A DNA stretch of 52,485 bases from an uncultured Bacilli bacterium (lineage in GTDB: Bacteria > Bacillota_I > Bacilli_A > RF39 > UBA660). The DNA is taken from NCBI GenBank assembly GCA_949745755.1, contig CATJZL010000053.1, positions 1 through 52,485 of the forward strand. Reading direction: 5' to 3'. The notes under the pieces are model-generated. The model saw nothing but the letters and a program-made list of their open reading frames with translations, ran no database searches and was not told the DNA's origin. This document shows positions 21,893 through 37,236 of this stretch, piece by piece. The position numbers and the translations under genes were made by a program. Positions within the stretch are counted from its first letter, which is position 1, and every line of letters begins with the position of its first letter.

Positions 21893-24592
21893 ATGTACAA
21901 AAAGAAAAACAAAATACTATATATGTTAATGATAATCAGCTATCTATCTTCATTCTATGTGTATCCATTATCAGTATATGCATTAGAAATAGATACTATA
22001 GAGAAAAATCAAAATATCGAAGTCCAAGAAGAAAAAAAGGAAAAAGAAGAGAAAACAGAATTAGATTTATCTTTCTCTGATACAATAAAATTAGAATTAG
22101 AGATAGAAGAAAAAGAGACTATAATTAAAAGATACTTAAAAGAAAAATTAAATATAGAAAAAGATATAGAAATAAATTTAGATGCTATGACTTATAGAGT
22201 AAAAGATCAAGAGGATAAAAGAATCAAACAATTTGTATACAATAAAAATAATATACTAGAATTGAACATAGAAGAAAAAGAAGACTATAGTAATGAAATT
22301 AAAAACGAAATATCTAAAATAATAAATCTAGAAAAAGAAAAGTTTAATGTTAAAAAAATAGAGAATAATCAATATAGTATAAATAATGAAAAAGATAAGA
22401 AGGTAATAATTAAAATAGCAAATAAGAAAAAAGATGAGAGTAATTTTTATACTTCAAAAAATTTATTAGAAAAACAAGATATAGGCTTATCAATTAAAAC
22501 ACACATACAAGATATAGGATGGCAAAATGAGGTAACAGATGGAGAAATAGCAGGAACGATAGGAATGAATAAATCATTAGAAGCTATACAAATAGCAATA
22601 AATAATAATGGTTTAACAGGAGAAATAAAATATCAAGCCCATGTTTCAGGTATAGGGTGGCAAAATGAAGTACAGAATAATGAAATAGCAGGAACGACAG
22701 GACAAGGAAGAAGTATAGAAGCCATTCGTATAAAATTAACAGAACAATTAGAAGCAAATTATGATATTTACTACAGAGTAAATGTAAAAAGTTATGGTTG
22801 GTTAGATTGGACAAAAAATGGAGAAAGCGCAGGGACTCTAGGTTATGGTCTAAGAATGGAATCTATTCAAATTAAATTAATGAACAAAAATGAAGCAGCA
22901 CCAGGAGAAACGATAAGACCGTTTATACAAAAACCAATGGGTGTATATTATGAAACGCATGTCCAAAATATCGGATGGCAAAATGGATTTGAAGATGGAC
23001 AAATAGCAGGAACGACAGGATTAGGGAAGGCACTAGAAGGGATAAAAATAAAATTAACAAATAATTATAGTATAGGAGAAATAAAATATCAAGCCCATGT
23101 TTCAGGTATAGGATGGCAAAATGAAGTAACAGCTGATAATTTAGCAGGAATGACAGGACAAGGAAGAAGTATAGAAGCAATTAGAATGTATCTAACAGAA
23201 GAATTAGAAAAAGAATACGATATTTACTATAGAGTACATTCTCAAAATATAGGATGGTTAGATTGGGCCAAAAACGGAGAAAATGCAGGAACACAGGGGT
23301 TTGGATATAATACAGAGGCAGTCCAAATAAAATTAGTAAAAAAAGCAGAACCAGCACCAGGTGCAACCAATAATCCCTTTCTTTTAAAAGAAACAGGTGT
23401 GTACTATGAAGCACATGTTCAAGATATAGGATGGCAAAATGGGGTAGAAAATGGAGAGATAGCAGGAACAACAGGACAAGGAAAAGCAATTGAAGGTATA
23501 AAAATACAAATAACAAATGGTAATAAAGTAGGAGAAATAAAATATCAAGCCCACGTTTCAGGTATAGGATGGCAAAGCGAAGTAAGTAGTTGGGAATTAG
23601 CAGGAACAACAGGACAAGGAAGAAGTATAGAAGCAATCAAAATGTATCTGACAGAAGAATTAGAAAAGGAATATGATATTTATTATAGAGCACATTCTCA
23701 AAATATAGGATGGTTAGATTGGGCCAAAAATGGAGAACCCGCTGGAACAAGTAGTATCGGATGGAATATGGAATCCATTCAAATAAAACTGGTAAAAAAG
23801 GGAGAACCCGCTCCAGGTGATACGACAGAACCTTATATCTCAGAATATTGGGTAAATGAGGGGGGAATACTAAAATACCATCAAGCAGATGGTACTTATG
23901 CTACAGGATTTAAAATTATAGGAAACATAAAATACTTCTTTAATATTAATGGAGAGTTATTGGGCACAAATGTAAGAAAAGTAATAGATATTTCATCACA
24001 CCAAAAGAATATAGATTGGGATATGGTAAAAAACTCAAACGAAGTAGATGCAGTCATAGTACGTGTATCAGCAGGAAGTGCTTATGAAGACACAATGTTA
24101 GAAAGAAATATAAAGGAATTAAATAGATTAGGAATACCTTATGGAATATATTTATATAGTTATGCAGAAGATGCAATAGGTACAGTTCAAGACCTAGGAA
24201 CAATGCATGAAGGAGCATTAGAAGCCCAAAGAATAATCAATGCCATAAATAAATATAAAATGCATCTCTCTTTCCCAATATATTATGACTTAGAGAAATG
24301 GGATCACAATAACAACAATGCATTATGGCAACCTAATCATTATTTACCAATAGTACGAGCATTTGGACAAGTAATGGATGCAGCAGGACAAAAGTGGCAA
24401 ATATATACAAATAAAGTATGGGCTGATACAGCATTAAACACACCAGAACTAAGAGATAAAGTAGACTGGATAGCACAATACAATAATTATGGATGCACAT
24501 ATACAGGAAGCTATTCAGGATGGCAATATACATCATCTGGAAATATTCCAGGAATAAAGGGAAATGTAGATATAAATGTATGGTTTAAATAG
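21893..24592 (+). CDS. Secreted GH25 muramidase with nine ChW (clostridial hydrophobic W) repeats
   Basis: Signal peptide (..SVYA); nine H[VIS]..IGW-type repeats; GH25 motifs IDISSHQ, YYDLE, WIAQY, WQYTS.G...GI.G.VD. Confidence 0.9.
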   Translation: MYKKKNKILYMLMIISYLSSFYVYPLSVYALEIDTIEKNQNIEVQEEKKEKEEKTELDLSFSDTIKLELEIEEKETIIKRYLKEKLNIEKDIEINLDAMTYRVKDQEDKRIKQFVYNKNNILELNIEEKEDYSNEIKNEISKIINLEKEKFNVKKIENNQYSINNEKDKKVIIKIANKKKDESNFYTSKNLLEKQDIGLSIKTHIQDIGWQNEVTDGEIAGTIGMNKSLEAIQIAINNNGLTGEIKYQAHVSGIGWQNEVQNNEIAGTTGQGRSIEAIRIKLTEQLEANYDIYYRVNVKSYGWLDWTKNGESAGTLGYGLRMESIQIKLMNKNEAAPGETIRPFIQKPMGVYYETHVQNIGWQNGFEDGQIAGTTGLGKALEGIKIKLTNNYSIGEIKYQAHVSGIGWQNEVTADNLAGMTGQGRSIEAIRMYLTEELEKEYDIYYRVHSQNIGWLDWAKNGENAGTQGFGYNTEAVQIKLVKKAEPAPGATNNPFLLKETGVYYEAHVQDIGWQNGVENGEIAGTTGQGKAIEGIKIQITNGNKVGEIKYQAHVSGIGWQSEVSSWELAGTTGQGRSIEAIKMYLTEELEKEYDIYYRAHSQNIGWLDWAKNGEPAGTSSIGWNMESIQIKLVKKGEPAPGDTTEPYISEYWVNEGGILKYHQADGTYATGFKIIGNIKYFFNINGELLGTNVRKVIDISSHQKNIDWDMVKNSNEVDAVIVRVSAGSAYEDTMLERNIKELNRLGIPYGIYLYSYAEDAIGTVQDLGTMHEGALEAQRIINAINKYKMHLSFPIYYDLEKWDHNNNNALWQPNHYLPIVRAFGQVMDAAGQKWQIYTNKVWADTALNTPELRDKVDWIAQYNNYGCTYTGSYSGWQYTSSGNIPGIKGNVDINVWFK
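22490..23830 (+). repeat. Three ~456-bp intragenic tandem units (each a ChW triplet)
   Basis: GGAGAAATAAAATATCAAGCCCA recurs at 22619, 23075 and 23531 (period 456 bp). Confidence 0.9.
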
Positions 24593-24768: not shown

Positions 24769-26679
24769 CTAAGCCTCCTTAGCTTCAGCAGTAGTCATGA
24801 TTTTAGATTTTAATGACTTTAATGAAATAGCATCAGTTAATGTTGAATCATCATCTTTAAGTGTAACGGTTTTTAATTCTTCATTAAGTTCTTCAAATTG
24901 TTCATGTGTCAATCTATATGATTTTGTAACAGTCGTATCTCCTTCAGTTGTAGTTATAGTTTGCCATTTTCCATCTAATGAATTTAATAATTCTTGAACC
25001 TCAGTTACTAATTTCATATCTTCAGAAGAATTAGATAATACATTAGCAGTACCAGTTTTAGCTTTAGTATAAACTGTTTCTACAGCTTTATCTGTATATA
25101 AAGTATCATCAGATTCCTTAGTTTTTAATTCTTCTAAATCTTCAAGAGCTGTATCAATAATAGTTTTTAAAGTTGCCTTACTAGTATCACTATAATTAGT
25201 ATTATCAAAATTTGTTAAATCATCAATTGCATTTTTTATAGCAAGACTTGTATTATATTTAGCTTTTGTTACACGAGAATCCATAGCAGCTTCAAACACA
25301 GTAATCATTTTCTCTACATCATCATTTTCTTTTTTATCAAATTCTTCCATATTCATACTATAACTATATTCAGTTATAAATGCAGTTCCATCTTTTAAAT
25401 CTGGATTATTATATTGCTCAGTATATAAATCTCTAACAGTAGATTTTGTTGCATTGTAGATATTTCCTTTAGCCTGATCTAAAGCTTCATTGATTTCTTC
25501 TTCAGAAGTAGCAGATTGAATAGAAGCTTTTTCACTACTGATTACCTCTTGTAAAAGCATGGCGTAAGTTGTAGTCTCATCATAAGAAATACCCTTAACT
25601 TCTCCACTTAGTTTAGAAATATAAGTATTTAATTCAGATAATGCAGCATCTATTTTTCCAGCTAATTCTTTAATTTCTTTAATAGCATCCTTAGCTTCTG
25701 AAATAGCACTTTCTAATTCTTTATCTGTAGTATTAACAGTAATATTATTGATAACTCCATCAACAATTTCTTCCACAGCCTGAACCCTTTTAACATCAGT
25801 AGTAGTGATATAGTTATTTAATTCTGTTAAAGCAGTATCAGTATTTTTAAGTACTTTTTCCGCACCAGCTGTAATAGAATCAATTTCTTCTTGAGAAATA
25901 GCTCCTTTAATATCAGCAATGGCCTTATCATAAATAGCAACGATAGCTTCATCAGTATTGTTAGTAGTAGCAGCCTTTGCACTTTCTATCTTACTAACTG
26001 CTCTTTCCTTAGAATCCTTTAAAAATAATTCATTTACTTGCTTCATTAAAGTATCTAATTTTTCATTTAATTCACTATAAGATTTAGCAGCACTAATAGC
26101 ATCTTCTAAAGCTTCATTGATTTCTTCTTTGCTAGTAGCAGCATGAATAGCTCTAATACCATTTTTAGCAATGTTTCTTATAGCTTGATTTTCACTATTC
26201 TTATAAACATCTAATTTTTGTATAGCTTCTTCTTTAGCAGCTTTCAAATCACTAACAGGAGGCTTTTCATTACCTGTTTTTACAATTCTAGCTTCTAAAG
26301 CTTCCATACTTTTTCCTAGACCTTCAGTACCAACCATTTCACCAGAAGTCATCCAGTCCATCCAACCAATATTTTGAACATGAGCTCTGTATTCTAGCCT
26401 ATATCCCTGTTCTTCTAAGCCATCAGCTCTTATAATAAGAGCTTCTACACCCTTAGCAATACCAGTAGTTCCAATAATATCCTCTTCAGAAACATTACGT
26501 ATCCATCCAATGTTTTGAACATGAACATCAAAAGATAATTTTACATTCTCAATATTTTCAAGACTTATTTTTAAAGCCTCTAATTTTAAACCATTACCAG
26601 TAGTTCCAGCAATACTATTTCTGACTGTTGGTAGCCATCCAATATTCTGTACATGAGCATCGATGCGAATTGAAGGCAT
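24769..26679 (-). CDS. Surface-protein body: three ChW repeats plus Ala/Glu/Lys-rich helical repeats; lacks a translatable signal peptide in this orientation
   Basis: HVQNIGW x3; repeats ATSKEEINEAL / AISQEEID / ATSEEEINEAL; frame stays open upstream to 26730 (LILLYSSLLIIPVNAAE) with no RBS before ATG 26679. Confidence 0.8.
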   Translation of the reverse strand: MPSIRIDAHVQNIGWLPTVRNSIAGTTGNGLKLEALKISLENIENVKLSFDVHVQNIGWIRNVSEEDIIGTTGIAKGVEALIIRADGLEEQGYRLEYRAHVQNIGWMDWMTSGEMVGTEGLGKSMEALEARIVKTGNEKPPVSDLKAAKEEAIQKLDVYKNSENQAIRNIAKNGIRAIHAATSKEEINEALEDAISAAKSYSELNEKLDTLMKQVNELFLKDSKERAVSKIESAKAATTNNTDEAIVAIYDKAIADIKGAISQEEIDSITAGAEKVLKNTDTALTELNNYITTTDVKRVQAVEEIVDGVINNITVNTTDKELESAISEAKDAIKEIKELAGKIDAALSELNTYISKLSGEVKGISYDETTTYAMLLQEVISSEKASIQSATSEEEINEALDQAKGNIYNATKSTVRDLYTEQYNNPDLKDGTAFITEYSYSMNMEEFDKKENDDVEKMITVFEAAMDSRVTKAKYNTSLAIKNAIDDLTNFDNTNYSDTSKATLKTIIDTALEDLEELKTKESDDTLYTDKAVETVYTKAKTGTANVLSNSSEDMKLVTEVQELLNSLDGKWQTITTTEGDTTVTKSYRLTHEQFEELNEELKTVTLKDDDSTLTDAISLKSLKSKIMTTAEAKEA

Positions 26680-26686
26680 TTCAGCA

Positions 26687-26714
26687 GCATTTACTGGGAT
26701 AATTAATAATGAAC
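26687..26714 (-). repeat. Left imperfect inverted site (candidate recombination site)
   Basis: Minus strand GTTCATTATTAATTATCCCAGTAAATGC; 16/28 identical to 27106-27133 on +. Confidence 0.45.
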
Positions 26715-26860
26715 TGTATAAAAGAATAAGTTATTTAGTATTTCTAATTTTGATATTCATACATAAGATAATAAAGAAGTACTAATTTTTTATTTTTAAT
26801 CTACAAAAATAAAATATAAAAATTGCTTTTAACTGAATTTAATAATTTTCAGTAAAATTA

Positions 26861-26889
26861 TTGAATAATTATTTTTTTTATGATATAAG
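26861..26889 (+). promoter_or_regulatory. Putative sigma-A promoter inside the candidate invertible segment
   Basis: TTGAAT-N17-TATAAG with extended -10 TG. Confidence 0.6.
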
Positions 26890-27035
26890 TAAGATGTATT
26901 CTTTTGATTTTATTGAAAAGTTAGAACTTATTAAATTTAACAAAATAAGGCAATATTGAACAAGGAGGTGGATTAGGTAGTAACAATCTTCAATAAAATT
27001 AAAAAAATAATATATGAAAGGAAAAGGAAGTAATT

Positions 27036-27143
27036 ATGAAAAATAATTTAACTAAAAAAACAAGTAAAGGATTATTAGCTGCGCTTGCTATGACAGCTGC
27101 ATTAGGTTCTACTGCAGTTATTCCACTTCCTGCCATCAAATGA
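27036..27143 (+). CDS. 35-aa orphan signal-peptide stub MKNNLTKKTSKGLLAALAMTAALGSTAVIPLPAIK (not in ORF track)
   Basis: AAAGGAAG RBS; basic n-region and Ala/Leu h-region, no mature domain. Confidence 0.75.
   Translation: MKNNLTKKTSKGLLAALAMTAALGSTAVIPLPAIK
27106..27133 (+). repeat. Right imperfect inverted site (candidate recombination site)
   Basis: GTTCTACTGCAGTTATTCCACTTCCTGC; shared pattern GTTC-N8-TTATYCCAST-N3-TGC. Confidence 0.45.
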
Positions 27144-27342
27144 CACCATTTTCCTACGTTTATATATTATATAACTTGATAACAATACAAAAAATAAAGT
27201 TTGAAAAGCTATCTAAAAAACCCAGCCACCTAAAAGGATGGACTTTTTTGTTATAAGATTGGATAGCATAAAAATTGACTTTCAAAGGAGCAATAAGGTA
27301 TACTGAATATAGAAACCATAACAATGGATCGGAGGGATATCT

Positions 27343-28134
27343 ATGAATATACATACATTTGTAGTACTAGCATATAAAAAGTCAAATAAACTAGAATCCT
27401 GTATAAAATCAGTATTAAATCAAAGTATAAAAACAAATGTAATGATTGCCACTTCAACTCCTAATAAATATATAGAGAACATGGCAAAAAAATATAAATT
27501 AGAAGTATGTGTTAATAAAGAATCAAATGGAATAGGAAACGATTTTGATTTTGCCACAAATTGTATAGATACAAAGCTTATAACAATAGCCCATCAAGAC
27601 GACATTTATGATTTTGATTATGCAAAAGAAGTAATAGAAAAATACAAAAAATTTCCAGATGCATTAATTATATTCACAGATTATTATGAAATAAAAAATG
27701 AGAAGAAGGAAAAAAGCAATATAAATTTAAAAATAAAAAGAATATTATTATTCCCGTTAAGATTCCATAGATTATCAGGTCTAAAAATAATAAAGAGAAG
27801 TGCATTAAGATTTGGAAACTCCATTTGCTGTCCTGCAGTAACATTTGTAACAAAAAATGTTCCAAAAGAAAAATTTTCTTGTAAATTTAAATGTGATGTG
27901 GACTGGTATGCTTGGGAAAAAATATCAAAAAACAAGGGGAAATATATATATATACCAAAAAAATTGATGGGACACAGAATTCATGAAGACTCAACAACCA
28001 CTAAAATTATAGAAAATAATATAAGAACAGAAGAAGATTTAGAAATGTTCAAGAAGTTTTGGCCTACTTGCCTTGCTAAAAAAATAAATAAATTATATGC
28101 AAAATCAGAAAACAACAATCAAGTAAAACAGTAA
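27343..28134 (+). CDS. GT2 glycosyltransferase
   Basis: IAHQDD, ICCPAV, DW..W, HRIH..S; GGAGG RBS. Confidence 0.85.
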   Translation: MNIHTFVVLAYKKSNKLESCIKSVLNQSIKTNVMIATSTPNKYIENMAKKYKLEVCVNKESNGIGNDFDFATNCIDTKLITIAHQDDIYDFDYAKEVIEKYKKFPDALIIFTDYYEIKNEKKEKSNINLKIKRILLFPLRFHRLSGLKIIKRSALRFGNSICCPAVTFVTKNVPKEKFSCKFKCDVDWYAWEKISKNKGKYIYIPKKLMGHRIHEDSTTTKIIENNIRTEEDLEMFKKFWPTCLAKKINKLYAKSENNNQVKQ

Positions 28135-28152
28135 AAAACGAAAGAAGAAAAA

Positions 28153-28608
28153 ATGGAAACAAATAAAATAGATAAATCAATAATAAAGATACTAAAACTA
28201 TTTCATATAAAAGCAAATAAAAAAATAGAAAAATTAATTATCCAAATAATTAAATTTATTATAGTAGGAGGAACAGCATTTATACTAGATTTCTTGTTTT
28301 TATATTTATTTAAAGAAATATTTGACTTATCCATACTCGTATCGAATACCTTATCCTTTTGTATTTCAGTCATTTATAATTATATAGCAAGTACAAAATG
28401 GGTTTTTGATTTAAAAAAAGAAAGAAGTAAAGAAAAAAATTTTATAATATTTATAATATTTAGTATCCTTGGACTAATAATCAATGATACAATTATGCTC
28501 ATAATGAATGACAAAATAAAAATCCATTATTTAATCTCTAAAATAATGGCAACTATTTTGGTAATGATTTTTAATTTTATAACAAGAAAAAAATTTTTGG
28601 AAAAATGA
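28153..28608 (+). CDS. GtrA family small flippase
   Basis: QIIKFIIVGG, NY....KWVF, NF...K; 4 TM helices. Confidence 0.9.
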   Translation: METNKIDKSIIKILKLFHIKANKKIEKLIIQIIKFIIVGGTAFILDFLFLYLFKEIFDLSILVSNTLSFCISVIYNYIASTKWVFDLKKERSKEKNFIIFIIFSILGLIINDTIMLIMNDKIKIHYLISKIMATILVMIFNFITRKKFLEK

Positions 28609-28640
28609 AAAATATATAATATAAAAAGTTATAGTAGAGT

Positions 28641-29165
28641 TTAATCAATATCAAAGGATATGTAATCTTCTATCTTTTCTATATTTCGATTAAGGATACG
28701 AGAAGCTTCCTTCAATTTTTCAGAAACTTCCTTTATAGTCATAGAATTAGAATAGAAATTAGAATGATCAATACGATCTATTATATCTGCAAATATACCT
28801 TTACATAGTAATGCAGTTTTCCTCCGTTCCTCAATCTCTTTCATAAGATTAGAATAAAACTCTTTATAGTTTTCGAGTTGCCTTCTATATTTTTTAATAA
28901 AAAGTATATCCTCTAAATCTTTACTAAGAGAAATAGCCTCTTGATCATACCCAGCCCTTTGCATAAGCAGAATTAAATCTAAATTTAAAACTTCAGCCAA
29001 ACCTTTTAAATACAAAAGATTAGGCTTTTTTCTTTTTCCAGCTTCAATACGAGATAATTCGGCACAATCCATATGAATTAAATGTGCCAGTTGTCGTTGA
29101 GAAAGTCCATATTGATTACGCGCTTGACGTATAAGAAACCCCAAACTATTCTCTGCTTCACTCAT
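28641..29165 (-). CDS. XRE-family HTH regulator with coiled-coil C-terminus
   Basis: R...GLSQRQLA......LSRIEAG.R..P; GGAGGGGG RBS on minus strand. Confidence 0.85.
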   Translation of the reverse strand: MSEAENSLGFLIRQARNQYGLSQRQLAHLIHMDCAELSRIEAGKRKKPNLLYLKGLAEVLNLDLILLMQRAGYDQEAISLSKDLEDILFIKKYRRQLENYKEFYSNLMKEIEERRKTALLCKGIFADIIDRIDHSNFYSNSMTIKEVSEKLKEASRILNRNIEKIEDYISFDID

Positions 29166-29184
29166 ATAAAAGATTCCCCCTCCT

Positions 29185-29244
29185 TTTGTTTATACTAAAT
29201 AAACAAACTAATGATAATAATATTGTTTAAACAAATTATATCAT
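29185..29244. promoter_or_regulatory. Two palindromic operator candidates between XRE and recombinase genes
   Basis: TTTGTTTAT-N5-ATAAACAAA (29185-29207) and ATGATA..TTGTTTAAACAA..TATCAT (29211-29244). Confidence 0.55.
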
Positions 29245-29281
29245 AGGTTATTGATAAAATCATCAGATATTTATAAGAGTA

Positions 29282-29310
29282 TTGACAAACTCAAAATCAA
29301 CTGATATAAT
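29282..29310 (+). promoter_or_regulatory. Perfect-consensus sigma-A promoter
   Basis: TTGACA-N17-TATAAT with extended -10 TG. Confidence 0.85.
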
Positions 29311-29365
29311 ATGGTCACTTTTTTGCCTAATGGTAAAGTAGTAGAAAAAAGAAGGAGAAAATACA

Positions 29366-29512
29366 ATGAAAAAAGGAATGACAAAACAAGAAATTGAAAA
29401 AAAAATTGATGAAACAATTAATCTAACAATAATATCAAAACTTTTAAACAAAAAATTAATCACGGAACAACAATTTTATACTTTAAAGGAAAAAATTAAA
29501 AAGATGTATTAA
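29366..29512 (+). CDS. 48-aa SHOCT-like protein preceding the recombinase (not in ORF track)
   Basis: AAGGAG RBS; MKKGMTKQEIEKKIDETINLTIISKLLNKKLITEQQFYTLKEKIKKMY with L...LIT..[EQ][FY] pattern. Confidence 0.7.
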   Translation: MKKGMTKQEIEKKIDETINLTIISKLLNKKLITEQQFYTLKEKIKKMY

Positions 29513-29530
29513 ATAAGAAGGGAAGATTTT

Positions 29531-31153
29531 ATGGCACAAGTAGAAATTATTGCAGCCAAAAAAAGAAAAAATGAAGAAATTATAACACAAGAAAAAAAAA
29601 GAGTATGTGCATATGCTAGAGTAAGTACAGATAGTGAAGAACAACTAACAAGTTATACATCACAGATTAAATACTATAAAGAATATATAAAATCCAAAGC
29701 AAATTGGACTTTTGTAGGAATTTATGCAGATGAAGGAATTAGTGGAACTCAAATAAAAAATAGAGATGGGTTTCAAAAAATGATAGAAGAAGCCATAGAT
29801 GGTAAAATAGATATTATCATAGCAAAATCAATTTCAAGATTTGCAAGAAATACCCTAGATACTTTAAAATATGTTAGATTATTAAGAGAATACAATGTGG
29901 ATATTCATTTTGAAAAAGAAAATATACATACCCTAGATTTAGATAGTGAAATGTTCTTAACACTTTACAGTGCCTTTGCCCAAGCAGAAAGTGAATCCAC
30001 ATCTGCAAATGTTACAATGGGTTTTATTGCAAAAATGAAACGAGGCGAAATAGTAGGAAACGCTGCATGTTATGGATTTGTATGGAATAAAGAAAAACAT
30101 AAGTTACAAATAAATGAAGAAGAATCAGAAATAGTAAAAATGATATTTCATTATTATATAGATGGTTATGGTACTAGAAAAATCGCCGAAAAATTAAATA
30201 CTCTAAATATAGTCTCCCCAAAAGGAACAAAATGGTGTCAAAGCACAGTAGCTAGAATAATTGCACAAGAAAAATATGTAGGAGATTTAATAGAACAAAA
30301 GTACTATACAATAAATCCCTTAACCCATAAACAAGTAAAAAATAATGGAGAAAAAGCAAAATATTATATAAAAAATCATCATGATGCTATAATAGATAGA
30401 AAAACATGGGAACAAGCGCAAGAAATCCAAAAACAAAGAAAAAGAAAAATCGAAGAGCAAAAAAACTATTTTATAGGAAAATACAGAATGCGTTATCCCT
30501 TTAGTAATAAAATGGAGTGTAGTACCTGTCATGCACCATTCCAAAGAAGAGTTGGATCAACAAAAAAGGACGGAAAAAAGACAGTATACTGGGCCTGTGC
30601 AAATAGACTAAAAAATAAAAATTTGTGTAGTCATAAAGAATTTATAGAGGATGCAGTAGTACAAAAAATATTTATAAAAATATACAATAAGATGGTAGAA
30701 AATAAGTATAAAACAAAAAAGGAACTTTATAAAACAATTAAAGAAATAGTATATAATACAGAATATAAAAAAAGAAATAAATTAAATCGTGAAAAAGATA
30801 TATTAAAAAAAAGATTATCCAGTCTTCTTGATATGAAATTAGATGGTTATATAGACAAAAAAAATTATCTAAAAAAAGAAAAAGAATTAAATAATAAATT
30901 ATTAGATATAAGGAACAAAATAGATAAAATAAAGGAAAATAAAGATATATTAAATGAAATAGAAAAAGTAATAAATGAACCATACTCATTGAATACTTTT
31001 GATAGAGAAGCATTTGATAATTTAGTAGAAAAAATAATAATAGGAGAAAAAGATAAAAAGGGCCAAAATAATCCTTATATGATAAGAATTAAAATAAAAA
31101 CAAATAAAATATATAAGTTTGATATTTCAAAAAAATCAAAAAAACCCTGTTAA
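29531..31153 (+). CDS. Large serine recombinase (resolvase + recombinase + Zn-ribbon/coiled coil)
   Basis: AYARVST catalytic Ser, YADEGISGT, KSISRFARN, AQAESES.S, YG, H.AII, CSTC...WAC...C. Confidence 0.93.
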   Translation: MAQVEIIAAKKRKNEEIITQEKKRVCAYARVSTDSEEQLTSYTSQIKYYKEYIKSKANWTFVGIYADEGISGTQIKNRDGFQKMIEEAIDGKIDIIIAKSISRFARNTLDTLKYVRLLREYNVDIHFEKENIHTLDLDSEMFLTLYSAFAQAESESTSANVTMGFIAKMKRGEIVGNAACYGFVWNKEKHKLQINEEESEIVKMIFHYYIDGYGTRKIAEKLNTLNIVSPKGTKWCQSTVARIIAQEKYVGDLIEQKYYTINPLTHKQVKNNGEKAKYYIKNHHDAIIDRKTWEQAQEIQKQRKRKIEEQKNYFIGKYRMRYPFSNKMECSTCHAPFQRRVGSTKKDGKKTVYWACANRLKNKNLCSHKEFIEDAVVQKIFIKIYNKMVENKYKTKKELYKTIKEIVYNTEYKKRNKLNREKDILKKRLSSLLDMKLDGYIDKKNYLKKEKELNNKLLDIRNKIDKIKENKDILNEIEKVINEPYSLNTFDREAFDNLVEKIIIGEKDKKGQNNPYMIRIKIKTNKIYKFDISKKSKKPC

Positions 31154-31223
31154 AAGAAAAGAGAAAGAATAAAATAAGAAATTGTATATTCATTTAAATA
31201 TATAGAAATTAATATAATTAAAT

Positions 31224-31589
31224 ATGAATAATGCAAAAGAGGATCAAATAAAAAATTTAACAACAGAAGAAATCTTATCTAGTGCTTTTATAGTACTAGG
31301 TATTTTAAGCATTTATGGAGATGAACTGCAAAAAAAATATATACAAACAAAAAATAAAGCTTATGAAGAACAAGCAAATTCCATTTTTGATTTAATTCTT
31401 TTGATTACTTTAATATTATATTTAATCTTTTTATATAGAAATTATAAACGTTATCAAAAATCTCCACAAAATACAAAATCTCTTTTTGGAGTAAGAGTTC
31501 TAGGAAGTTTATTACTACTAGCAGGTATCTTGTGTACAATTTATTTTCAACAGAATATAAAAACGCCAACAGCAGCACCAGAATTATAA
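31224..31589 (+). CDS. Hypothetical 3-TM membrane protein
   Basis: Three hydrophobic segments; ORF only. Confidence 0.65.
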   Translation: MNNAKEDQIKNLTTEEILSSAFIVLGILSIYGDELQKKYIQTKNKAYEEQANSIFDLILLITLILYLIFLYRNYKRYQKSPQNTKSLFGVRVLGSLLLLAGILCTIYFQQNIKTPTAAPEL

Positions 31590-31742
31590 GAAAAAACTTA
31601 AATATAAATCTGACCTCTTAGTATTATATTAAGATTTGAATATAGTCAAAATACCTGTTTAAAAGGAGAATATTTTATTAATATCCTTTTTTATTTTGCA
31701 CTTATAAAAAAAGACAAGAATTAACAGCCAAAAGCAAAGCTA

Positions 31743-31771
31743 TTGACATCAAAAATATAACATTCTAAAAT
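31743..31771 (+). promoter_or_regulatory. Putative sigma-A promoter
   Basis: TTGACA-N17-TAAAAT. Confidence 0.65.
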
Positions 31772-31818
31772 ATATCTCCAAAAGATATATATTTTTATAA
31801 ACAAAGAAGGTGTGAAAA

Positions 31819-32454
31819 ACGACAAAAGAAGAAATATACATAAAACGAAAGAAAAAAGAATTACTAGGACATATAGATACTTACAATAAAAGATGTTCAC
31901 CACAAAATAAAATCCTAGTAGATAAAAAAGACTTTGACATGGAAAGGACCTTATGTAGATCCAATATATGTAAGAATTGTGGTTCTTGTTGTAAGACATA
32001 TCCCTGTATTTTTGACCCATATGATTTTTTGGATATAACAAACTTAGATTATATGAAAAAACTATTAGATACCAATATATTATGCATATCCGAAACTTAT
32101 GAAAATAAAGTTCTAATAATAAGACCACGCGGAATAGGAGACTTAGGAACTGTAAGTTTACACGAAGATATAAAATATTCATGGAATGGCTCAAATTCAT
32201 GTATATTACATTCTACGAACGGATGTTTACTTCCTATTGAATACAGGCCAAGTGAAGGTTTATTACATATTCCAATTGATAGAATAGATCACCAAACAAT
32301 ATATAAAGAAGAAGATATCGAAAAAGAATACATACAATATAAAGAAATCTTACTAACCTTATTCAAAAGATATTATACTATACAGAATTTACCTAATGTA
32401 GAGGAAGAAAATATAAAAAAATTTACAAAATATATAATCGGATATAAAAAATAG
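31819..32454 (+). CDS. CxxCxxCC cysteine-cluster (YkgJ-like) protein; frame extends upstream of ATG 31939 to an ACG at 31819
   Basis: CKNCGSCC, C.L....GC.L....RP; SD GAAGGTG 6 nt before ACG. Confidence 0.6.
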   Translation, partial: TTKEEIYIKRKKKELLGHIDTYNKRCSPQNKILVDKKDFDMERTLCRSNICKNCGSCCKTYPCIFDPYDFLDITNLDYMKKLLDTNILCISETYENKVLIIRPRGIGDLGTVSLHEDIKYSWNGSNSCILHSTNGCLLPIEYRPSEGLLHIPIDRIDHQTIYKEEDIEKEYIQYKEILLTLFKRYYTIQNLPNVEEENIKKFTKYIIGYKK

Positions 32455-32551
32455 TTTGATCTAACTATCTAATAATAATATTTAGAATATAGATGACTAA
32501 ATGTCAATTGTATAGTATAATGAGAGACGAAATGAAGTAGGTGATTTCAAT

Positions 32552-35500
32552 ATGCAAATAACAGAAATAGGTACAAATAAAAACAGAAAAAATCATGAAA
32601 AAGAAATATTGTATTATGTTAATTATCCAGATTATGTAAAAGGAAGAAATTATTACAAAAACTATATTACTTTAAAATCAAAAGAAAGAGAAGAAACTAG
32701 CACAACATTTTATTTTGATGTAGAATCAGAAAGAACTTATGAACATTATGATTGTAATATAAGCGTAAATAAAAAAGGAGAAATAATAGATCACGAATGT
32801 ACTTGTATGCAGTTTGCCTCTTACGAAAGTTGTAAACACCTAGCAGCCTGTCTTTATAATTACCAAGATGAAATATTTATTCATGAAATAGATGATAAAG
32901 AATTAGAAAATATAACAAAAAAAGTTTTCAAGTTTTTCACCGATAATAAAGAAAAAGCAAAAGTAAAAAGAAAGTTAAATTTAAAAATAAATATAACAAC
33001 TGAAACAAACTTTAATTATGAAAATGATACAGGAATGATAGCCCTAGAAATAGGAGAAAAAAAATTATACAAATGTAGTAAACATAAACTAACAAATCTT
33101 TTAGATGCCATAGAAAGGGAAGAAGAATTTTATATAGGAAAACTTTTCACGTATACTCCTATAGAACATTACTTTAGTGAGGAGGACAAAGAAATAATAG
33201 AGGATCTTCAAGCTCTAAAAGAATCATCTCGTTATGGTTATCAGCCAATGACTTTAAAAAGAAATAGTATAAAAAAATTTCTAAAAAAATTAGATAAAAA
33301 AGAATTTATATTAAATGGTTACACAATTAAAAAAATAGAAAACAAATATCCTCTACCAACTACTTTAAATAAAAGAAATGATAAATATAGCCTCTCCTTT
33401 AATAATATAGAGGATATAGAAATCATTACAGGAGATTTAGAATACATCCAAATAAATGAATACCTATATCATTTAAACAAAAAAGATAGAGAGTTACTTC
33501 AAATTGTATTAGAAAATGATTTAGAAAATATGATTTTTTCTAAAAAAGATATTTCAGAATTTTCTAAAAGCATTTTACCCACTATTAAAAATCAAATAGA
33601 AATAAATGAAGAAATAACGGATATAATATTATCAAAAGAACCCATACCTAAGATATATTTTGATTTGTATAGAAATAGAATTATATGTAATTTAAAATTG
33701 GATTATGAAGGAAATACAATTGACTACTTTGACAAAGAAAGTAATATTTTAAGAGATGATGAATTTGAATCGAAAATAATAGAAGAATTATATACCTATA
33801 ATTTTGAAATGGTAAAGAATCAAATTAAGATAGAAGAATTAGAAGATATAGCTTATTTTTTAGAAGAAGGATTAGAAAAATTAGCAGAAAACTATGAGAC
33901 TTATACTTCAGAAAAACTAAAAAATATCAATATTATTAAAAATAGTAATATAAAAGCAACATTCTCAATAGGTCAAGATAATATAATGAGCTATAACTTT
34001 GATTTAGGAGATATAAAAGAAGATGAAATTGTAAATATATTTGAATCTCTAAAAAACAGAAAAAAATATTTTAGACTAAAAAGTGGGGATATCATAAATT
34101 TGGAAGAAGATAAAGAATTAAAGGAACTTCAAAATCTAGCAGAAGAGATGAATATCAAAGAAAAAGACATGTTAGAAAAAGAAGGAACGATACCAAAATA
34201 TAGAGCCATTTATTTAGATAGTCTAAAGAAGAAAAAATATCATATTATAAAAACAAATAATCTTTTTGATGAATTAATAGAAAAATTCAATACATATAAA
34301 GATACAAAAGTAAAATTATCAAAAAAAGAAAAAGAGCTATTAAGAGATTATCAACTAGAAGGAGTAAAATGGCTATACAATATTGAACAAACAGGTTTTG
34401 GAGGAATACTAGCAGATGAAATGGGACTAGGAAAATCTATACAAACGATTTATTTTATAAAAGAATTATTAAAAGAAAATAAAAATTATAAATTTTTAAT
34501 CGTAGCACCTACCTCACTGACTTACAATTGGGAACAAGAGTTTGATAAATTTGAACCAAACATAAAATACAAAGTACTAGCAGGATTAAAGAAAAAAAGA
34601 TTGGAAGAGGAAACTAAGATAGAAAAAACAAATGTACTCATTACCAGTTATGGACTTTTAAAAGAAGATAAAGAATTTTTTCAAAATATAAATTTTAAAG
34701 TAATGATAATAGATGAAGCACAAAATATAAAAAATAGTAATACAGCTATTACCAAAACAGTAAAAAGTATAAATGCAGAAACCAAACTAGCACTAACAGG
34801 AACTCCAATAGAAAATTCAACTATAGAACTTTGGAGTATATTTGATTATATTATGCCAGGATTTTTAGGAAATATAGACACCTTTGAGAAAAGATACAAA
34901 GTAAGAGAATTTGATGAAGACACAAATAAAAATTTAGAAAGCTTAAATAATTTAATTACGCCATTCGTACTTAGAAGAAAGAAAAAAGATGTAATAAAAG
35001 ACTTACCAGATAAAATAGAAAATAACATTTATATTGAACTAACAAAAGAACAAAAGAAAATTTACGTAGCAGAATTAGAAAGAGTAAACAAAGAAATAAA
35101 CAAAATATTAGCAGGAGAAGGAATGAAAAAAGCAAGGTTTTTAATACTACAGCTCCTAACAAAATTAAGACAAATATGCATAGATCCAAGAATACTATAT
35201 GCAAACTATAAGGGTGGAAGTGGTAAAATGGAGGAATTTGTAAAAACAGTAAAAGAAGTAATTGAAAACGGTCATAAAATATTAGTTTTTACAAGTTTTA
35301 AAACAGCTCTTTCCCTAGCTAAAGAGGAATTAAATAAAAATAATATTACATCTTATACAATAGATGGTTCTGTTGCAAGTAAGAAAAGAATTGAACTAGT
35401 AGATAAATTTAACACAGATAATACAAATGTATTTTTTATCATGTTAAAATCAGGTGGAACAGGACTAAACTTAACGAGTGCTGATGTGGTGATTCATCTT

Positions 35501-35755
35501 GACTTATGGTGGAATCCCCAAGCAGAAAATCAAGCCACAGATAGAGCACATAGAATAGGACAAAAAAATGTAGTAGATGTAATAAGATTTATCACTAAAG
35601 GAACAATAGAAGAAAAGATACTTGATTTACAAAACAAAAAGAAAATACTAAGTGATAAACTAATAGATGCAAATAGTGGTGACAATACATTCTCAAAATT
35701 AACAGAACAAGATATCAAAGAACTTTTATCCTTCGAAAATAAAGAAGAAGCTTAA
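32552..35755 (+). CDS. SWIM zinc finger / SNF2 family helicase-like ATPase
   Basis: CTC...CKH SWIM, LADEMGLGKS, DEAQ.IKN, LTGTPIEN, GLNLT.AD, WWNP..E.QA.DRAHRIGQ. Confidence 0.95.
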   Translation: MQITEIGTNKNRKNHEKEILYYVNYPDYVKGRNYYKNYITLKSKEREETSTTFYFDVESERTYEHYDCNISVNKKGEIIDHECTCMQFASYESCKHLAACLYNYQDEIFIHEIDDKELENITKKVFKFFTDNKEKAKVKRKLNLKINITTETNFNYENDTGMIALEIGEKKLYKCSKHKLTNLLDAIEREEEFYIGKLFTYTPIEHYFSEEDKEIIEDLQALKESSRYGYQPMTLKRNSIKKFLKKLDKKEFILNGYTIKKIENKYPLPTTLNKRNDKYSLSFNNIEDIEIITGDLEYIQINEYLYHLNKKDRELLQIVLENDLENMIFSKKDISEFSKSILPTIKNQIEINEEITDIILSKEPIPKIYFDLYRNRIICNLKLDYEGNTIDYFDKESNILRDDEFESKIIEELYTYNFEMVKNQIKIEELEDIAYFLEEGLEKLAENYETYTSEKLKNINIIKNSNIKATFSIGQDNIMSYNFDLGDIKEDEIVNIFESLKNRKKYFRLKSGDIINLEEDKELKELQNLAEEMNIKEKDMLEKEGTIPKYRAIYLDSLKKKKYHIIKTNNLFDELIEKFNTYKDTKVKLSKKEKELLRDYQLEGVKWLYNIEQTGFGGILADEMGLGKSIQTIYFIKELLKENKNYKFLIVAPTSLTYNWEQEFDKFEPNIKYKVLAGLKKKRLEEETKIEKTNVLITSYGLLKEDKEFFQNINFKVMIIDEAQNIKNSNTAITKTVKSINAETKLALTGTPIENSTIELWSIFDYIMPGFLGNIDTFEKRYKVREFDEDTNKNLESLNNLITPFVLRRKKKDVIKDLPDKIENNIYIELTKEQKKIYVAELERVNKEINKILAGEGMKKARFLILQLLTKLRQICIDPRILYANYKGGSGKMEEFVKTVKEVIENGHKILVFTSFKTALSLAKEELNKNNITSYTIDGSVASKKRIELVDKFNTDNTNVFFIMLKSGGTGLNLTSADVVIHLDLWWNPQAENQATDRAHRIGQKNVVDVIRFITKGTIEEKILDLQNKKKILSDKLIDANSGDNTFSKLTEQDIKELLSFENKEEA

Positions 35756-35862
35756 TCTCTAATAAAACATAGAAAAAGCAACCAAATTTATACAAAAAGA
35801 TAACGATAATCGGTATTGCTACCAATAATATTTGTAATATAATTTTGGTGGAGGTGGAAAGA

Positions 35863-37236
35863 ATGAAGTTTTGCGATAAACTCACCAAACAAAGAAAAAA
35901 CAATAATTTAAGTCAAGAACAATTAGCAGAAAGGTTAAATGTTTCAAGACAAGCCGTTTCAAAATGGGAATTAGGCTCATCCTATCCAGATATGGAAAAA
36001 ATAATTCAATTAACAAAAGTACTAAATTGTACCTTAGAAGATCTATTAGATGATGGTACAATAAATCAAGGAGCAAGTTCTGGGAAGCTAAATATAAATA
36101 CTTGTTTCCAAGATTTACTGTCTTTTATTACAAAAACATATAATATGTTTTGTAGTATGACTCTAAAAGAAAAATTAAAATGCTTAATAGAAATGTTTAT
36201 TTTAGGAATCATTTTATTGATAGTTTTTGCAGTAGCTGATGCTTTAATTCAAAGTTTAATACTAGACTGGTTATGGCAAATTCCTAAGATAGGAGAATAT
36301 TTGATAGGAATATTAAATAACCTAGTAATAATAATATTTATAGCATTAGCTCTAATCGTATTTATCCATATTTTTAAAATCAGATATTTAGATTACTTTA
36401 TTACTATAGAAGATAGTAATATCAAAAATAAAATTATAGAAGAACCTATAGAAAAAATAGAAAGTAAAAACTATAAATACAAAGAAAAACAAAAAGAAAA
36501 AATAATTATTAGAGATCCAAAACACTCAGTAATGAATTTTTCGAAATTTTTAATGAAAATAATCATACTAATTTTAAAATTCTTTGCTTTAATCTTTATA
36601 ATTCCAACAATTTTTATCTTTATATTTTTAATACTACTAGCAGTAATAAGTATATACCATACAATGTATGCGACTCTTTTCTTTTATATAGGTCTAGTTT
36701 TAATAGGAGGGACGCTCATTGGTTATGCCATATTAGAAATCTTATATAATTTTATAGTAAATAGAGAAATAAAATTTAAAAGAATATTCATAATATTAAT
36801 AAGTAGTTTTATAATAATAGGTTTATTTAGTGGTTTAAGTTTCATAAGTTTATTGAATTATGATTACCAAAAAAACACTTCTAATCTCAATAAAAAAACA
36901 ACAACACAAAATATCACAGTAGGAGAATATACAATTTTTCTAAATCATATGAATGCGGAATACATAATAGATAATACACAAGCAGAAAGTACAGCAAAAA
37001 TAGAAATCACCTCTATAAAAGAAATAGACTATAATTTAAAACACTTCAAAATAGGTGAATATGACTATTACAACTTAGAAACGACAGATTTAAATGCATT
37101 TGACATATATAAAATAATTAGAAAAGACTTTCAAAGTAAGAGAATAAGAAGTTATACTCAAGAAAATATTGTAAGTACAAAAATCTATATATCAGAAACA
37201 ACTTATAACCTTCTAAAAGAAAAAAATAACATATAA
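35863..37236 (+). CDS. XRE HTH regulator fused to a multi-TM region and extracellular domain
   Basis: LSQEQLAERLNVSRQAVSKWE.G.S.PD; GGAGG RBS supports ATG 35863. Confidence 0.85.
   Translation: MKFCDKLTKQRKNNNLSQEQLAERLNVSRQAVSKWELGSSYPDMEKIIQLTKVLNCTLEDLLDDGTINQGASSGKLNINTCFQDLLSFITKTYNMFCSMTLKEKLKCLIEMFILGIILLIVFAVADALIQSLILDWLWQIPKIGEYLIGILNNLVIIIFIALALIVFIHIFKIRYLDYFITIEDSNIKNKIIEEPIEKIESKNYKYKEKQKEKIIIRDPKHSVMNFSKFLMKIIILILKFFALIFIIPTIFIFIFLILLAVISIYHTMYATLFFYIGLVLIGGTLIGYAILEILYNFIVNREIKFKRIFIILISSFIIIGLFSGLSFISLLNYDYQKNTSNLNKKTTTQNITVGEYTIFLNHMNAEYIIDNTQAESTAKIEITSIKEIDYNLKHFKIGEYDYYNLETTDLNAFDIYKIIRKDFQSKRIRSYTQENIVSTKIYISETTYNLLKEKNNI

Follow-up and report, generated by a model that had tools for sequence, protein, structure and literature searches.

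The contig analysed here, to which we refer as the window (C53, 52,485 nucleotides in full), belongs to the genome of an uncultured Bacilli bacterium assembled into 133 contigs (1.38 Mb, 27.6% G+C, 91.6% complete). Next to a gene for a ChW surface protein it carries a 431-bp invertible segment (26695..27125, including the 3-bp core at either end), which is found on the opposite strand in a contig from the mouse-gut metagenome run X6. We consider it likely, with a probability of roughly 0.8, that the segment is a conservative site-specific inversion switch, or inverton, which turns a wall-bound ChW surface protein on and off. The first-pass annotation, made from the letters of the window alone, had proposed an intragenic invertible switch caught in its OFF state. 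The OFF assignment holds, the ON form having been found both as natural proteins and in the X6 contig, and the invertible segment is borne out, but the element is a partial-intergenic inverton rather than an intragenic one, as in the ON state one of its sites lies in the coding sequence and the other upstream of the promoter.

In the mechanism that we propose, the ON orientation would join the cassette to the remainder of the gene through a Pro codon, with the reading frame kept, and give a 671-aa preprotein, with an n-region containing four Lys, an h-region GLLAALAMTAAL and a c-region ending ...VIPVNA|AE. This protein would presumably be exported and held at the wall through its three ChW repeats. 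In the OFF orientation the cassette would yield only a 35-aa stub, and the body of the gene would be left without promoter, ribosome-binding site (RBS), start codon or export signal. Strand exchange would take place at the CC centre of two imperfectly palindromic sites of ~46 bp in inverted orientation, and would be carried out by a large serine recombinase (29531-31153) together with a co-transcribed 48-aa directionality factor, under a divergent helix-turn-helix (HTH) regulator.

When 26695-27125 is inverted in silico a 671-aa open reading frame (ORF) results, as had been predicted from the window, and this differs from the natural protein P0129 at a single position (N172S) and from P0128 at two. 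Over the junction the natural fused proteins match the predicted flip letter for letter (...TAVIP|VNAAEMPSIRID), the N-termini of both P0128 and P0129 being MKNNLTKKTSKGLLAALAMTAALGSTAVIPVNAAEMPSIRID. The fused, ON forms are P0128 (ENA, 671 aa; two contigs), P0129 (Logan, 671 aa; two contigs) and P0124 (ten contigs), the last of which is a 116-aa frameshifted form with the same fused N-terminus. The OFF forms of 636 aa are P0121 (33 contigs), P0123 (14), P0126 (10), P0127 (7) and P0001 (1), and the stub, P0122, which belongs to the OFF state only, is found on 105 contigs. Proteins of both forms stem from several sources (ENA, Logan and NCBI). The cluster of the body protein at 90% identity has 20 members, and the forms and contig counts given here cover 15 of them. 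In public annotation the OFF state appears as a leaderless 636-aa protein accompanied by a 35-aa orphan ORF.

The two arrangements are also seen in the DNA. Orientation was read from assembled contigs, the form taken by all of the 24 runs considered; those containing the locus are from mouse gut, and four of them, one per study (X4, X5, X6 and X10), were compared over 25700-28100. A 6129-nt contig of X6 carries exactly 26695-27125 on the opposite strand, with joints 26694|27125 and 26695|27126, three ambiguous letters at each joint and the segment otherwise unchanged, while in X4, X5 and X10 one contig each spans the locus in the orientation of the window. Both orientations therefore exist in nature with an exact junction, and the inversion is base-exact, conservative and reciprocal. 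The segment is single-copy in the genome. In public assemblies the OFF state prevails, with 105 stub contigs against 14 fused contigs and three of the four runs at the locus. The share of sampled words (0.95-0.99) was set aside as a readout of orientation, as it is uninformative: runs at 0.97 were either OFF (X4, X5) or ON (X6). When P0128 was compared with genome contigs, the sole hit was a ChW match of 43% identity in an unrelated metagenome-assembled genome; metagenome contigs gave no hit, though near-identical records may be missing there.

The body of the surface protein is encoded on the minus strand at 24769..26679 (636 aa, identical to P0123) and consists of three ChW repeats (Pfam E 7.8e-35) followed by a helical region of ~480 aa. 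ChW repeats are generally regarded as cell-wall-binding modules. For the C-terminal 486 aa Pfam gave nothing above threshold, and an NCBIfam search of the body gave no match. The nearest look-alikes of the helical region in a protein atlas are DUF1542/FIVAR/GA-like, a type of module found in Gram-positive surface proteins; these scored 0.77-0.83, under the bar of 0.9, and are leads only. The first-pass annotation had described this protein as having neither an RBS nor a usable signal peptide, with a frame upstream that resembles a signal-peptide c-region, and our reading agrees: the frame ahead of the ATG is *LILLYSSLLIIPVNAAE-MPSIRID, in which there is no start codon, and no Shine-Dalgarno sequence precedes the ATG. 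The true mature protein would begin two codons upstream of the called start (AE-MPSIRID). The c-region codons P-V-N-A-A-E (26680..26697, minus strand) are left on the side of the body, with the Pro codon (26695-26697) at the crossover.

On the plus strand an RBS (AAGGAAG, 27024-27030) precedes the stub ORF (27036..27143), the two together occupying 27024..27143, and the earlier description of an RBS driving a 35-aa stub that has no mature domain is likewise upheld. The stub, which equals P0122, has the sequence MKNNLTKKTSKGLLAALAMTAALGSTAVIPLPAIK*. The n- and h-regions of a signal peptide would be encoded by its codons 1-30 (27036-27125), and LPAIK* (27126-27143) is an out-of-context tail. In the ON product, as seen in P0128 and read by eye, there are four Lys within residues 2-11, then the h-region and then V-N-A|A-E. 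Signal peptidase I requires small residues at both the -3 and the -1 position. Judged by its sequence, the leader of the ON product would be a typical Sec-type signal peptide, and P0192 and P0193, two of its homologues, share this layout.

Homologues of the body are few: a scan of its C-terminal 486 aa against 1.84 billion representatives gave only four proteins. One of them, P0192 (720 aa), aligns collinearly with P0128 starting at residue 4 and continuing past residue 530 (35% identity, E 7e-98), and the alignment is gapless at the junction (…SSAILPVNAATKPS…). The stub alone matches the N-terminus of P0192 at 17 of 30 positions, and at the equivalent place P0193 reads ...VAIPVANAAE. The first-pass annotation had suggested looking for contiguous homologues of the fused N-terminus, and P0192 is one; it had also allowed that homologues of the stub might continue into an unrelated protein, whereas P0192 continues into the same protein. 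Because P0192 has leader and body in one piece, collinear with P0128, the stub is the true leader of this body, and the gene was originally a single piece.

Further evidence comes from the haplotypes of the protein, which are stated here relative to P0129. The unchanged haplotype is ON as P0129 and OFF as P0121 (33 contigs); the N172 haplotype has its OFF form in the window (P0123, 14 contigs) and its ON form in the X6 contig; the L214+N248 haplotype is OFF as P0127 (7 contigs) and ON as P0124/P0125 (10 contigs each, with a shared longest contig). Two others were seen in one state, T248 only in the ON form (P0128) and E366/E376/R417 only in the OFF form (P0126). Since three haplotypes occur in both states, inversion at the identical junction has recurred, and any haplotype tree contains at least three inversion events at that junction or else repeated short recombination tracts. 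The single-nucleotide polymorphisms (SNPs) at 26270 and 27606, which flank the switch, occur in all four combinations, so homologous recombination between strains does take place at the locus. Recurrent site-specific inversion is clearly more likely than spread by recombination, however, because a 3-bp microhomology would not yield repeated identical reciprocal events and because the OFF body has remained intact in five variants on 65 contigs. From the three haplotypes that occur in both states we infer, indirectly, that the switch is reversible within one population. The protein is lost through mutation as well as through inversion: the ON copy of the L214+N248 lineage (P0124/P0125) is frameshifted near residue 108, and P0191 (246 aa) is a broken OFF copy.

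The cassette contains a promoter candidate, a leader, the RBS and signal-peptide codons 1-30. The promoter candidate, read from the sequence, is TTGAAT-17 nt-TATAAG with a TG before the -10 hexamer (26861..26889, plus strand). The sequence proposed at first pass is present as described, but it is absent from the list given by a promoter scan, because the scan demands a T at the last position of the hexamer, and in this AT-rich stretch promoter-like matches are not above the level in shuffles (13 found against 18.5 expected). Within the leader of ~145 nt lies a long hairpin (26897..27009, plus strand) with arms of 21 nt that are 90% complementary; its fold has a z-score of -2.0, and 7 of 200 shuffles fold equally well. 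A search of 26400-27400 against Rfam gave no match at E values up to 1. The loop region of the hairpin holds a strong AAGGAGGTG, after which there is no start codon.

The positions of the recombination sites follow from the X6 joints and from half-site statistics. Each consists of a 22-nt half-site, a CC core and a second 22-nt half-site, the left site lying at 26674..26719 on the minus strand (its core being GG on the plus strand at 26696-26697) and the right site at 27101..27146 on the plus strand (core at 27123-27124). The junctions share CCA/TGG at 27123-27125 and 26695-26697. The imperfect alignment given by the first-pass annotation, with 16/28 identities and the shared CCA in frame, was reproduced. 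The bases that flank CCA differ between the sites (C/T before it, G/C after it), and because of this and of the clean recombinants both strand exchanges are placed within CCA. Around CC, the left-inside half-site matches the left-outside at 12/22 positions, the left-outside matches the right-inside at 12/22, the left-inside matches the right-inside at 11/22 and the right-inside matches the right-outside at 10/22. Against 100,000 random CC-anchored site pairs, with two possible centres tried, the six half-site comparisons sum to 59 matches where 39.0 ± 5.9 are expected (p 0.0015), and the self-dyad matches number 22 where 12.8 ± 3.1 are expected (p 0.003). With CA as the centre the matches between inside and outside half-sites fall to chance.

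These features bear on the class of enzyme. A serine recombinase is indicated by the short identity at the crossover, only 3 bp, and by a dyad that has CC as its centre; the sequence fits one with a 2-bp crossover at CC. Imperfect palindromes of ~46 bp, inverted with respect to each other and each built on a non-palindromic 2-bp core, are the kind of site on which serine recombinases act. Classical tyrosine recombinases need 6-8 identical bases between the cuts. A tyrosine-recombinase switch of the RecV, Xer or Fim type was rejected on this overlap, the 3 bp of identity being flanked by mismatches; a search for PF00589 found none on this contig and two intact ones on contig C44. A small serine invertase of the Hin/Gin type (~190 aa, 26-bp sites) was also rejected, because the enzyme encoded nearby is a large serine recombinase of 540 aa; the half-sites here are only about half identical. 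The pattern GTTC-N8-TTATYCCA has three occurrences in the genome, two of which are the switch, where by our own estimate ~0.4 would be expected. A half-site matrix, which is overfitted because it was trained on the four half-sites of these same sites, found no second full site pair in the 91.6%-complete assembly, the next best scoring 14.6 against 37-39. As no second such pair was found in the assembly, a dedicated local system is suggested.

A large serine recombinase is encoded 2.4 kb from the right site (29531..31153, plus strand; 540 aa), and the odds that it is the invertase appear to us about even. It has the Pfam domains Resolvase (26-173), Recombinase (196-303) and Zn_ribbon_recom (323-383). 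In four strain lineages, matched by their longest contigs, recombinase and switch share long contigs (52485, 76287, 48015 and 26933 nt). A consensus promoter, TTGACA-17-TATAAT (29282..29310, plus strand), precedes both a 48-aa ORF (29366..29512, plus strand) and the recombinase, and an HTH_3 (XRE-type) regulator identified by Pfam (28641..29165, minus strand) is divergent from this operon. The genes around the recombinase encode a GT2 glycosyltransferase, a GtrA-like protein, the HTH regulator, a 121-aa membrane protein and an SNF2 helicase, and no recognisable prophage was found around it. In the intact recombinase gene the first 24 codons contain runs of seven and nine A (29558-29564 and 29592-29600), the genome as a whole having 96 A/T runs of 9 or more; slippage at the A runs could switch the recombinase itself.

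The 48-aa ORF resembles a recombination directionality factor and is kept upstream of related recombinases. Of the 19 related loci examined, five have it directly before the recombinase gene, with 49-62% identity (L057 10647-10784, L058 202-342, L059 4148-4285, L060 9054-9194 and L079 852-980), and five of the six nearest homologues of the recombinase are encoded at these loci. The homologous ORFs often have an XRE-type HTH gene nearby, and homologues of the HTH_3 regulator adjoin three related recombinase modules. A predicted complex of the recombinase with the 48-aa protein has an interface score (ipSAE) of 0.72, against 0.02 for the best control; among solved complexes 51 of 78 came up to the mark for this score, as did 2 of 108 mismatched pairs. 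At least 90% of the contacts agree between runs, and the partner has a predicted local distance difference test score (pLDDT) of 80. On the recombinase the predicted contacts fall at residues 385-410 and 473-498, immediately C-terminal to the zinc ribbon (323-383). Directionality factors are reported to bind the junction of zinc ribbon and coiled coil (PMC12286644), and the 48-aa protein is predicted from the model to bind the recombinase at this junction. It is thus a candidate directionality factor, of no named family.

An alternative is that the switch is real but that another recombinase flips the cassette, the neighbouring gene being the remnant of a mobile element. We regard this as a genuine, if doubtful, possibility. 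The genome has 12 Resolvase-domain hits, only one of which, the candidate invertase, is on this contig, together with two intact Xer-like tyrosine recombinases (C44) and two IS110-family genes, so that one of the 11 other Resolvase-domain genes, an Xer-like enzyme or an IS110-type DEDD enzyme are the candidates. There are precedents, such as RecV and Mpi, for global invertases acting at a distance. Several findings weigh against the neighbour as the invertase: the surroundings of its closest relatives (40-55% identity) look like those of mobile elements and contain relaxase genes, recombinases in tandem or in pairs, and a reverse transcriptase; no split surface genes were found beside those relatives; no comparable sites were found beside related recombinases with the half-site matrix, the best scoring 18.8, in L069; the high score of the complex may reflect likeness to a solved complex of an integrase with its directionality factor; and in some strains still carrying the locus the recombinase is called from Met84 (P0139, 457 aa, 12 contigs; P0148, 434 aa, one contig, which also has a 23-aa internal deletion), a form without the part that holds the catalytic serine. 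A frameshift in the recombinase of L067 was not taken as a shared feature, since it amounts to one altered base in a contig covered 2.7x. On the other hand, the 3-bp identity and the CC-centred dyad speak against a tyrosine recombinase of the classical type; of the other serine recombinases, the six alignable by tblastn share only 23-30% identity with the candidate; and that no further site pair was found in the assembly is more in keeping with a dedicated local enzyme than with a global one. The Resolvase hits off this contig are mostly on contigs of 3-16 kb, several of them at contig ends, and may represent mobile elements, mis-binned fragments or further rearranging loci.

Other explanations concern the inversion itself. 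It could have been a one-off event in an ancestor whose gene was pseudogenised by it, now persisting as a polymorphism spread by homologous recombination with no programmed switch, which we consider very unlikely. In its favour are the fact that only consensus contigs were seen, the SNP combinations, which demonstrate recombination at the locus, the OFF majority among the contigs, the relative P0192, seen in the contiguous form only, and the frameshifts in an OFF copy (P0191) and in the ON lineage P0124/P0125. However, three haplotypes occur in both states with an identical junction, which a 3-bp microhomology would not produce repeatedly, the body is intact in the five OFF variants, the junction is in frame and reciprocal with no bases lost or gained, and the sites show the dyad structure typical of a recombinase. 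That the window or the flipped contigs are misassembled, a possibility the first-pass annotation had raised, can for practical purposes be discounted. The window does come from a fragmented assembly, but misassembly is excluded because single contigs span the locus in independent runs, three of the four OFF and one ON; contigs of both orientations are thus seen, both protein forms derive from several sources, and there is no long repeat at the junctions to mislead an assembler.

Recurrent site-specific inversion therefore remains the reading that we favour, and there are observations that count against it. Orientation was read from consensus contigs, and the contig counts are not independent, as public mouse-gut assemblies may share strains. 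Some of the haplotypes common to both orientations could have come to be shared through homologous recombination. The promoter at 26861-26889, as a consensus match only, is plausible but unproven. As a plain inverted repeat the junctions are weak, as the first-pass annotation had conceded: of 200,000 CCA-anchored site pairs drawn at random from this genome, 1.9% do as well as 16/28 and 11% as well as the 26/63 observed here. The cluster of P0192 contains the contiguous form only (two members, five contigs), no split forms, and hence no sign of the switch, were found in the clusters of P0192, P0193 and P0194, all of which have few contigs, so that the switch is seen in this species only. A search of 400 other genomes of the family turned up no P0192 gene, and against the 40 nearest relatives the body protein gave ChW-repeat matches only (4 of 41 genomes matched, including that of the window). 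Because the cluster is contiguous only and the gene is missing from these 400 and 40 genomes, gene and switch are taken to be an accessory trait of the species.

The surroundings of the switch were compared with those in a congener, G006 (window 21893-24592 and 27343-37236 against G006:C4 24800-32700). Relative to G006, the ChW gene, switch and GT2 form one accessory insertion and the HTH regulator and recombinase another, to either side of a conserved GtrA gene. In G006 a GH25-ChW lysozyme-like gene, the window copy of which has nine ChW repeats, directly precedes GtrA; the switchable ChW gene, GT2, the HTH-recombinase pair and the SNF2 helicase (32552-35755) are missing, their place being taken by genes for a membrane protein of 450 aa and a protein of 226 aa. 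By this comparison the neighbourhood appears to be a variable cell-surface locus, a setting that would suit a two-way toggle in which the OFF promoter reads through the stub into GT2 (27343-28134, plus strand) and GtrA (28153-28608, plus strand), both assigned by Pfam, such that display of the ChW protein alternates with raised glycosylation of a surface polymer. The OFF cassette does point at these genes (27343-28608), which lie 200 nt away, and the terminator-like hairpin in the gap (27226..27241, minus strand) is weak, with five pairs and T/A runs on both sides. We nevertheless think such a toggle unlikely, as GT2 has a promoter-like site of its own at 27275-27304 and the hairpin is followed on the plus strand by a T run and may terminate transcription.

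Two further observations concern the rest of the assembly (G000). Resolvase hits elsewhere include those on C56, C73, C29, C131, C38, C60, C132, C101 and C84, and 8 of the 12 hits lie in open frames of ~465-650 aa, the size of large serine recombinases. A near-identical stretch of at least 46 nt recurs on at least eight contigs (C59:225, C57:98, C55:30, C16:1402, C79:11165, C92:20011, C70:524 and C102:6321), in several cases within a few hundred bases of the contig end, and probably represents a multi-copy element at which the assembly breaks off.

Several known systems resemble parts of this arrangement. In the vsa system of Mycoplasma pulmonis a single expression site provides the promoter and the 5' end, which encodes the signal peptide, the recombination site lies within the coding sequence, and the tyrosine recombinase HvsR serves many silent gene bodies; the switch described here has the same promoter/signal-peptide unit and a site within the coding sequence, though with one body only. 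The cwpV element of Clostridioides difficile reportedly lies between promoter and ORF, is terminator-based and is inverted by RecV at 21-bp imperfect repeats, whereas here promoter and 5' coding sequence flip together and the crossover is of 2-3 bp. The likeness is that of a phase-variable wall protein in a Gram-positive gut bacterium, controlled by inversion of a short upstream element (PMC2784873). The closest natural analogue is UU172/mba of Ureaplasma parvum, where the inversion sites lie in the 5' part of the coding sequence of a surface-protein gene and in an intergenic spacer, and the promoter, with the 5' end that encodes the signal peptide, moves off the gene body (PMC3047005). There the cassette passes to a second body (UU171/UU144), giving alternation, the repeats are of at least 21 nt and Xer-like tyrosine recombinases are suspected, compared with 3 bp and an indicated serine recombinase here. 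In the present case the alternative partner is a 5-codon tail, and the switch is therefore a plain ON/OFF one. The first-pass annotation had drawn parallels to mba and to RecV-type switches; the former is apt, and the latter does not suit a crossover with 3 bp of identity.

This switch presumably lies below the thresholds of the tools used to find invertons, and would be missed by them. Switches whose sites share little beyond a CC core would be invisible to repeat-based inverton finders and therefore could be widespread and uncounted. Partial-intergenic invertons, as found by PhaVa (PMC10028968) and by Milman et al (PMC9881135), similarly overlap a coding sequence at one end and an intergenic region at the other, and their inversion alters the gene product. 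These surveys set out from inverted repeats that can be detected, and domain-swapping shufflons make up many of the cases they report, whereas here there is almost no repeat and the cut falls inside the signal peptide. Engineered serine-integrase reporters (PMC12286644) place a promoter between dissimilar inverted sites (attP and attB) that share only a central dinucleotide, and use the integrase either alone or together with a directionality factor, as the present locus has a large serine recombinase with a small partner that is predicted to bind; they are laboratory constructs, whereas the present system is natural and chromosomal, with a link between enzyme and sites that we infer. Tentatively, and with somewhat less confidence than we place in the neighbour as invertase, we suggest that the chromosome here carries a natural equivalent of the engineered integrase flip switch, comprising a domesticated recombinase and its partner under XRE-type regulation and att-like sites with little in common beyond a CC core. 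Among the titles and abstracts considered, none reported a large serine recombinase driving phase-variable inversion, although the supplementary tables of surveys may hold similar cases.

A reading of sequence alone can thus find a real DNA switch with almost no inverted repeat, of a kind that repeat-based inverton surveys would probably miss. For a small-genome bacterium of the mouse gut it provides a testable mechanism of surface-protein variation that bears on escape from antibody or phage, which would presumably be the selective reason for the switch. If the neighbouring recombinase and its 48-aa partner drive it, integrase/directionality-factor chemistry would have been put to natural use for the control of a gene and not for the movement of an element, and the locus would also offer a compact new pair of site and enzyme for study.

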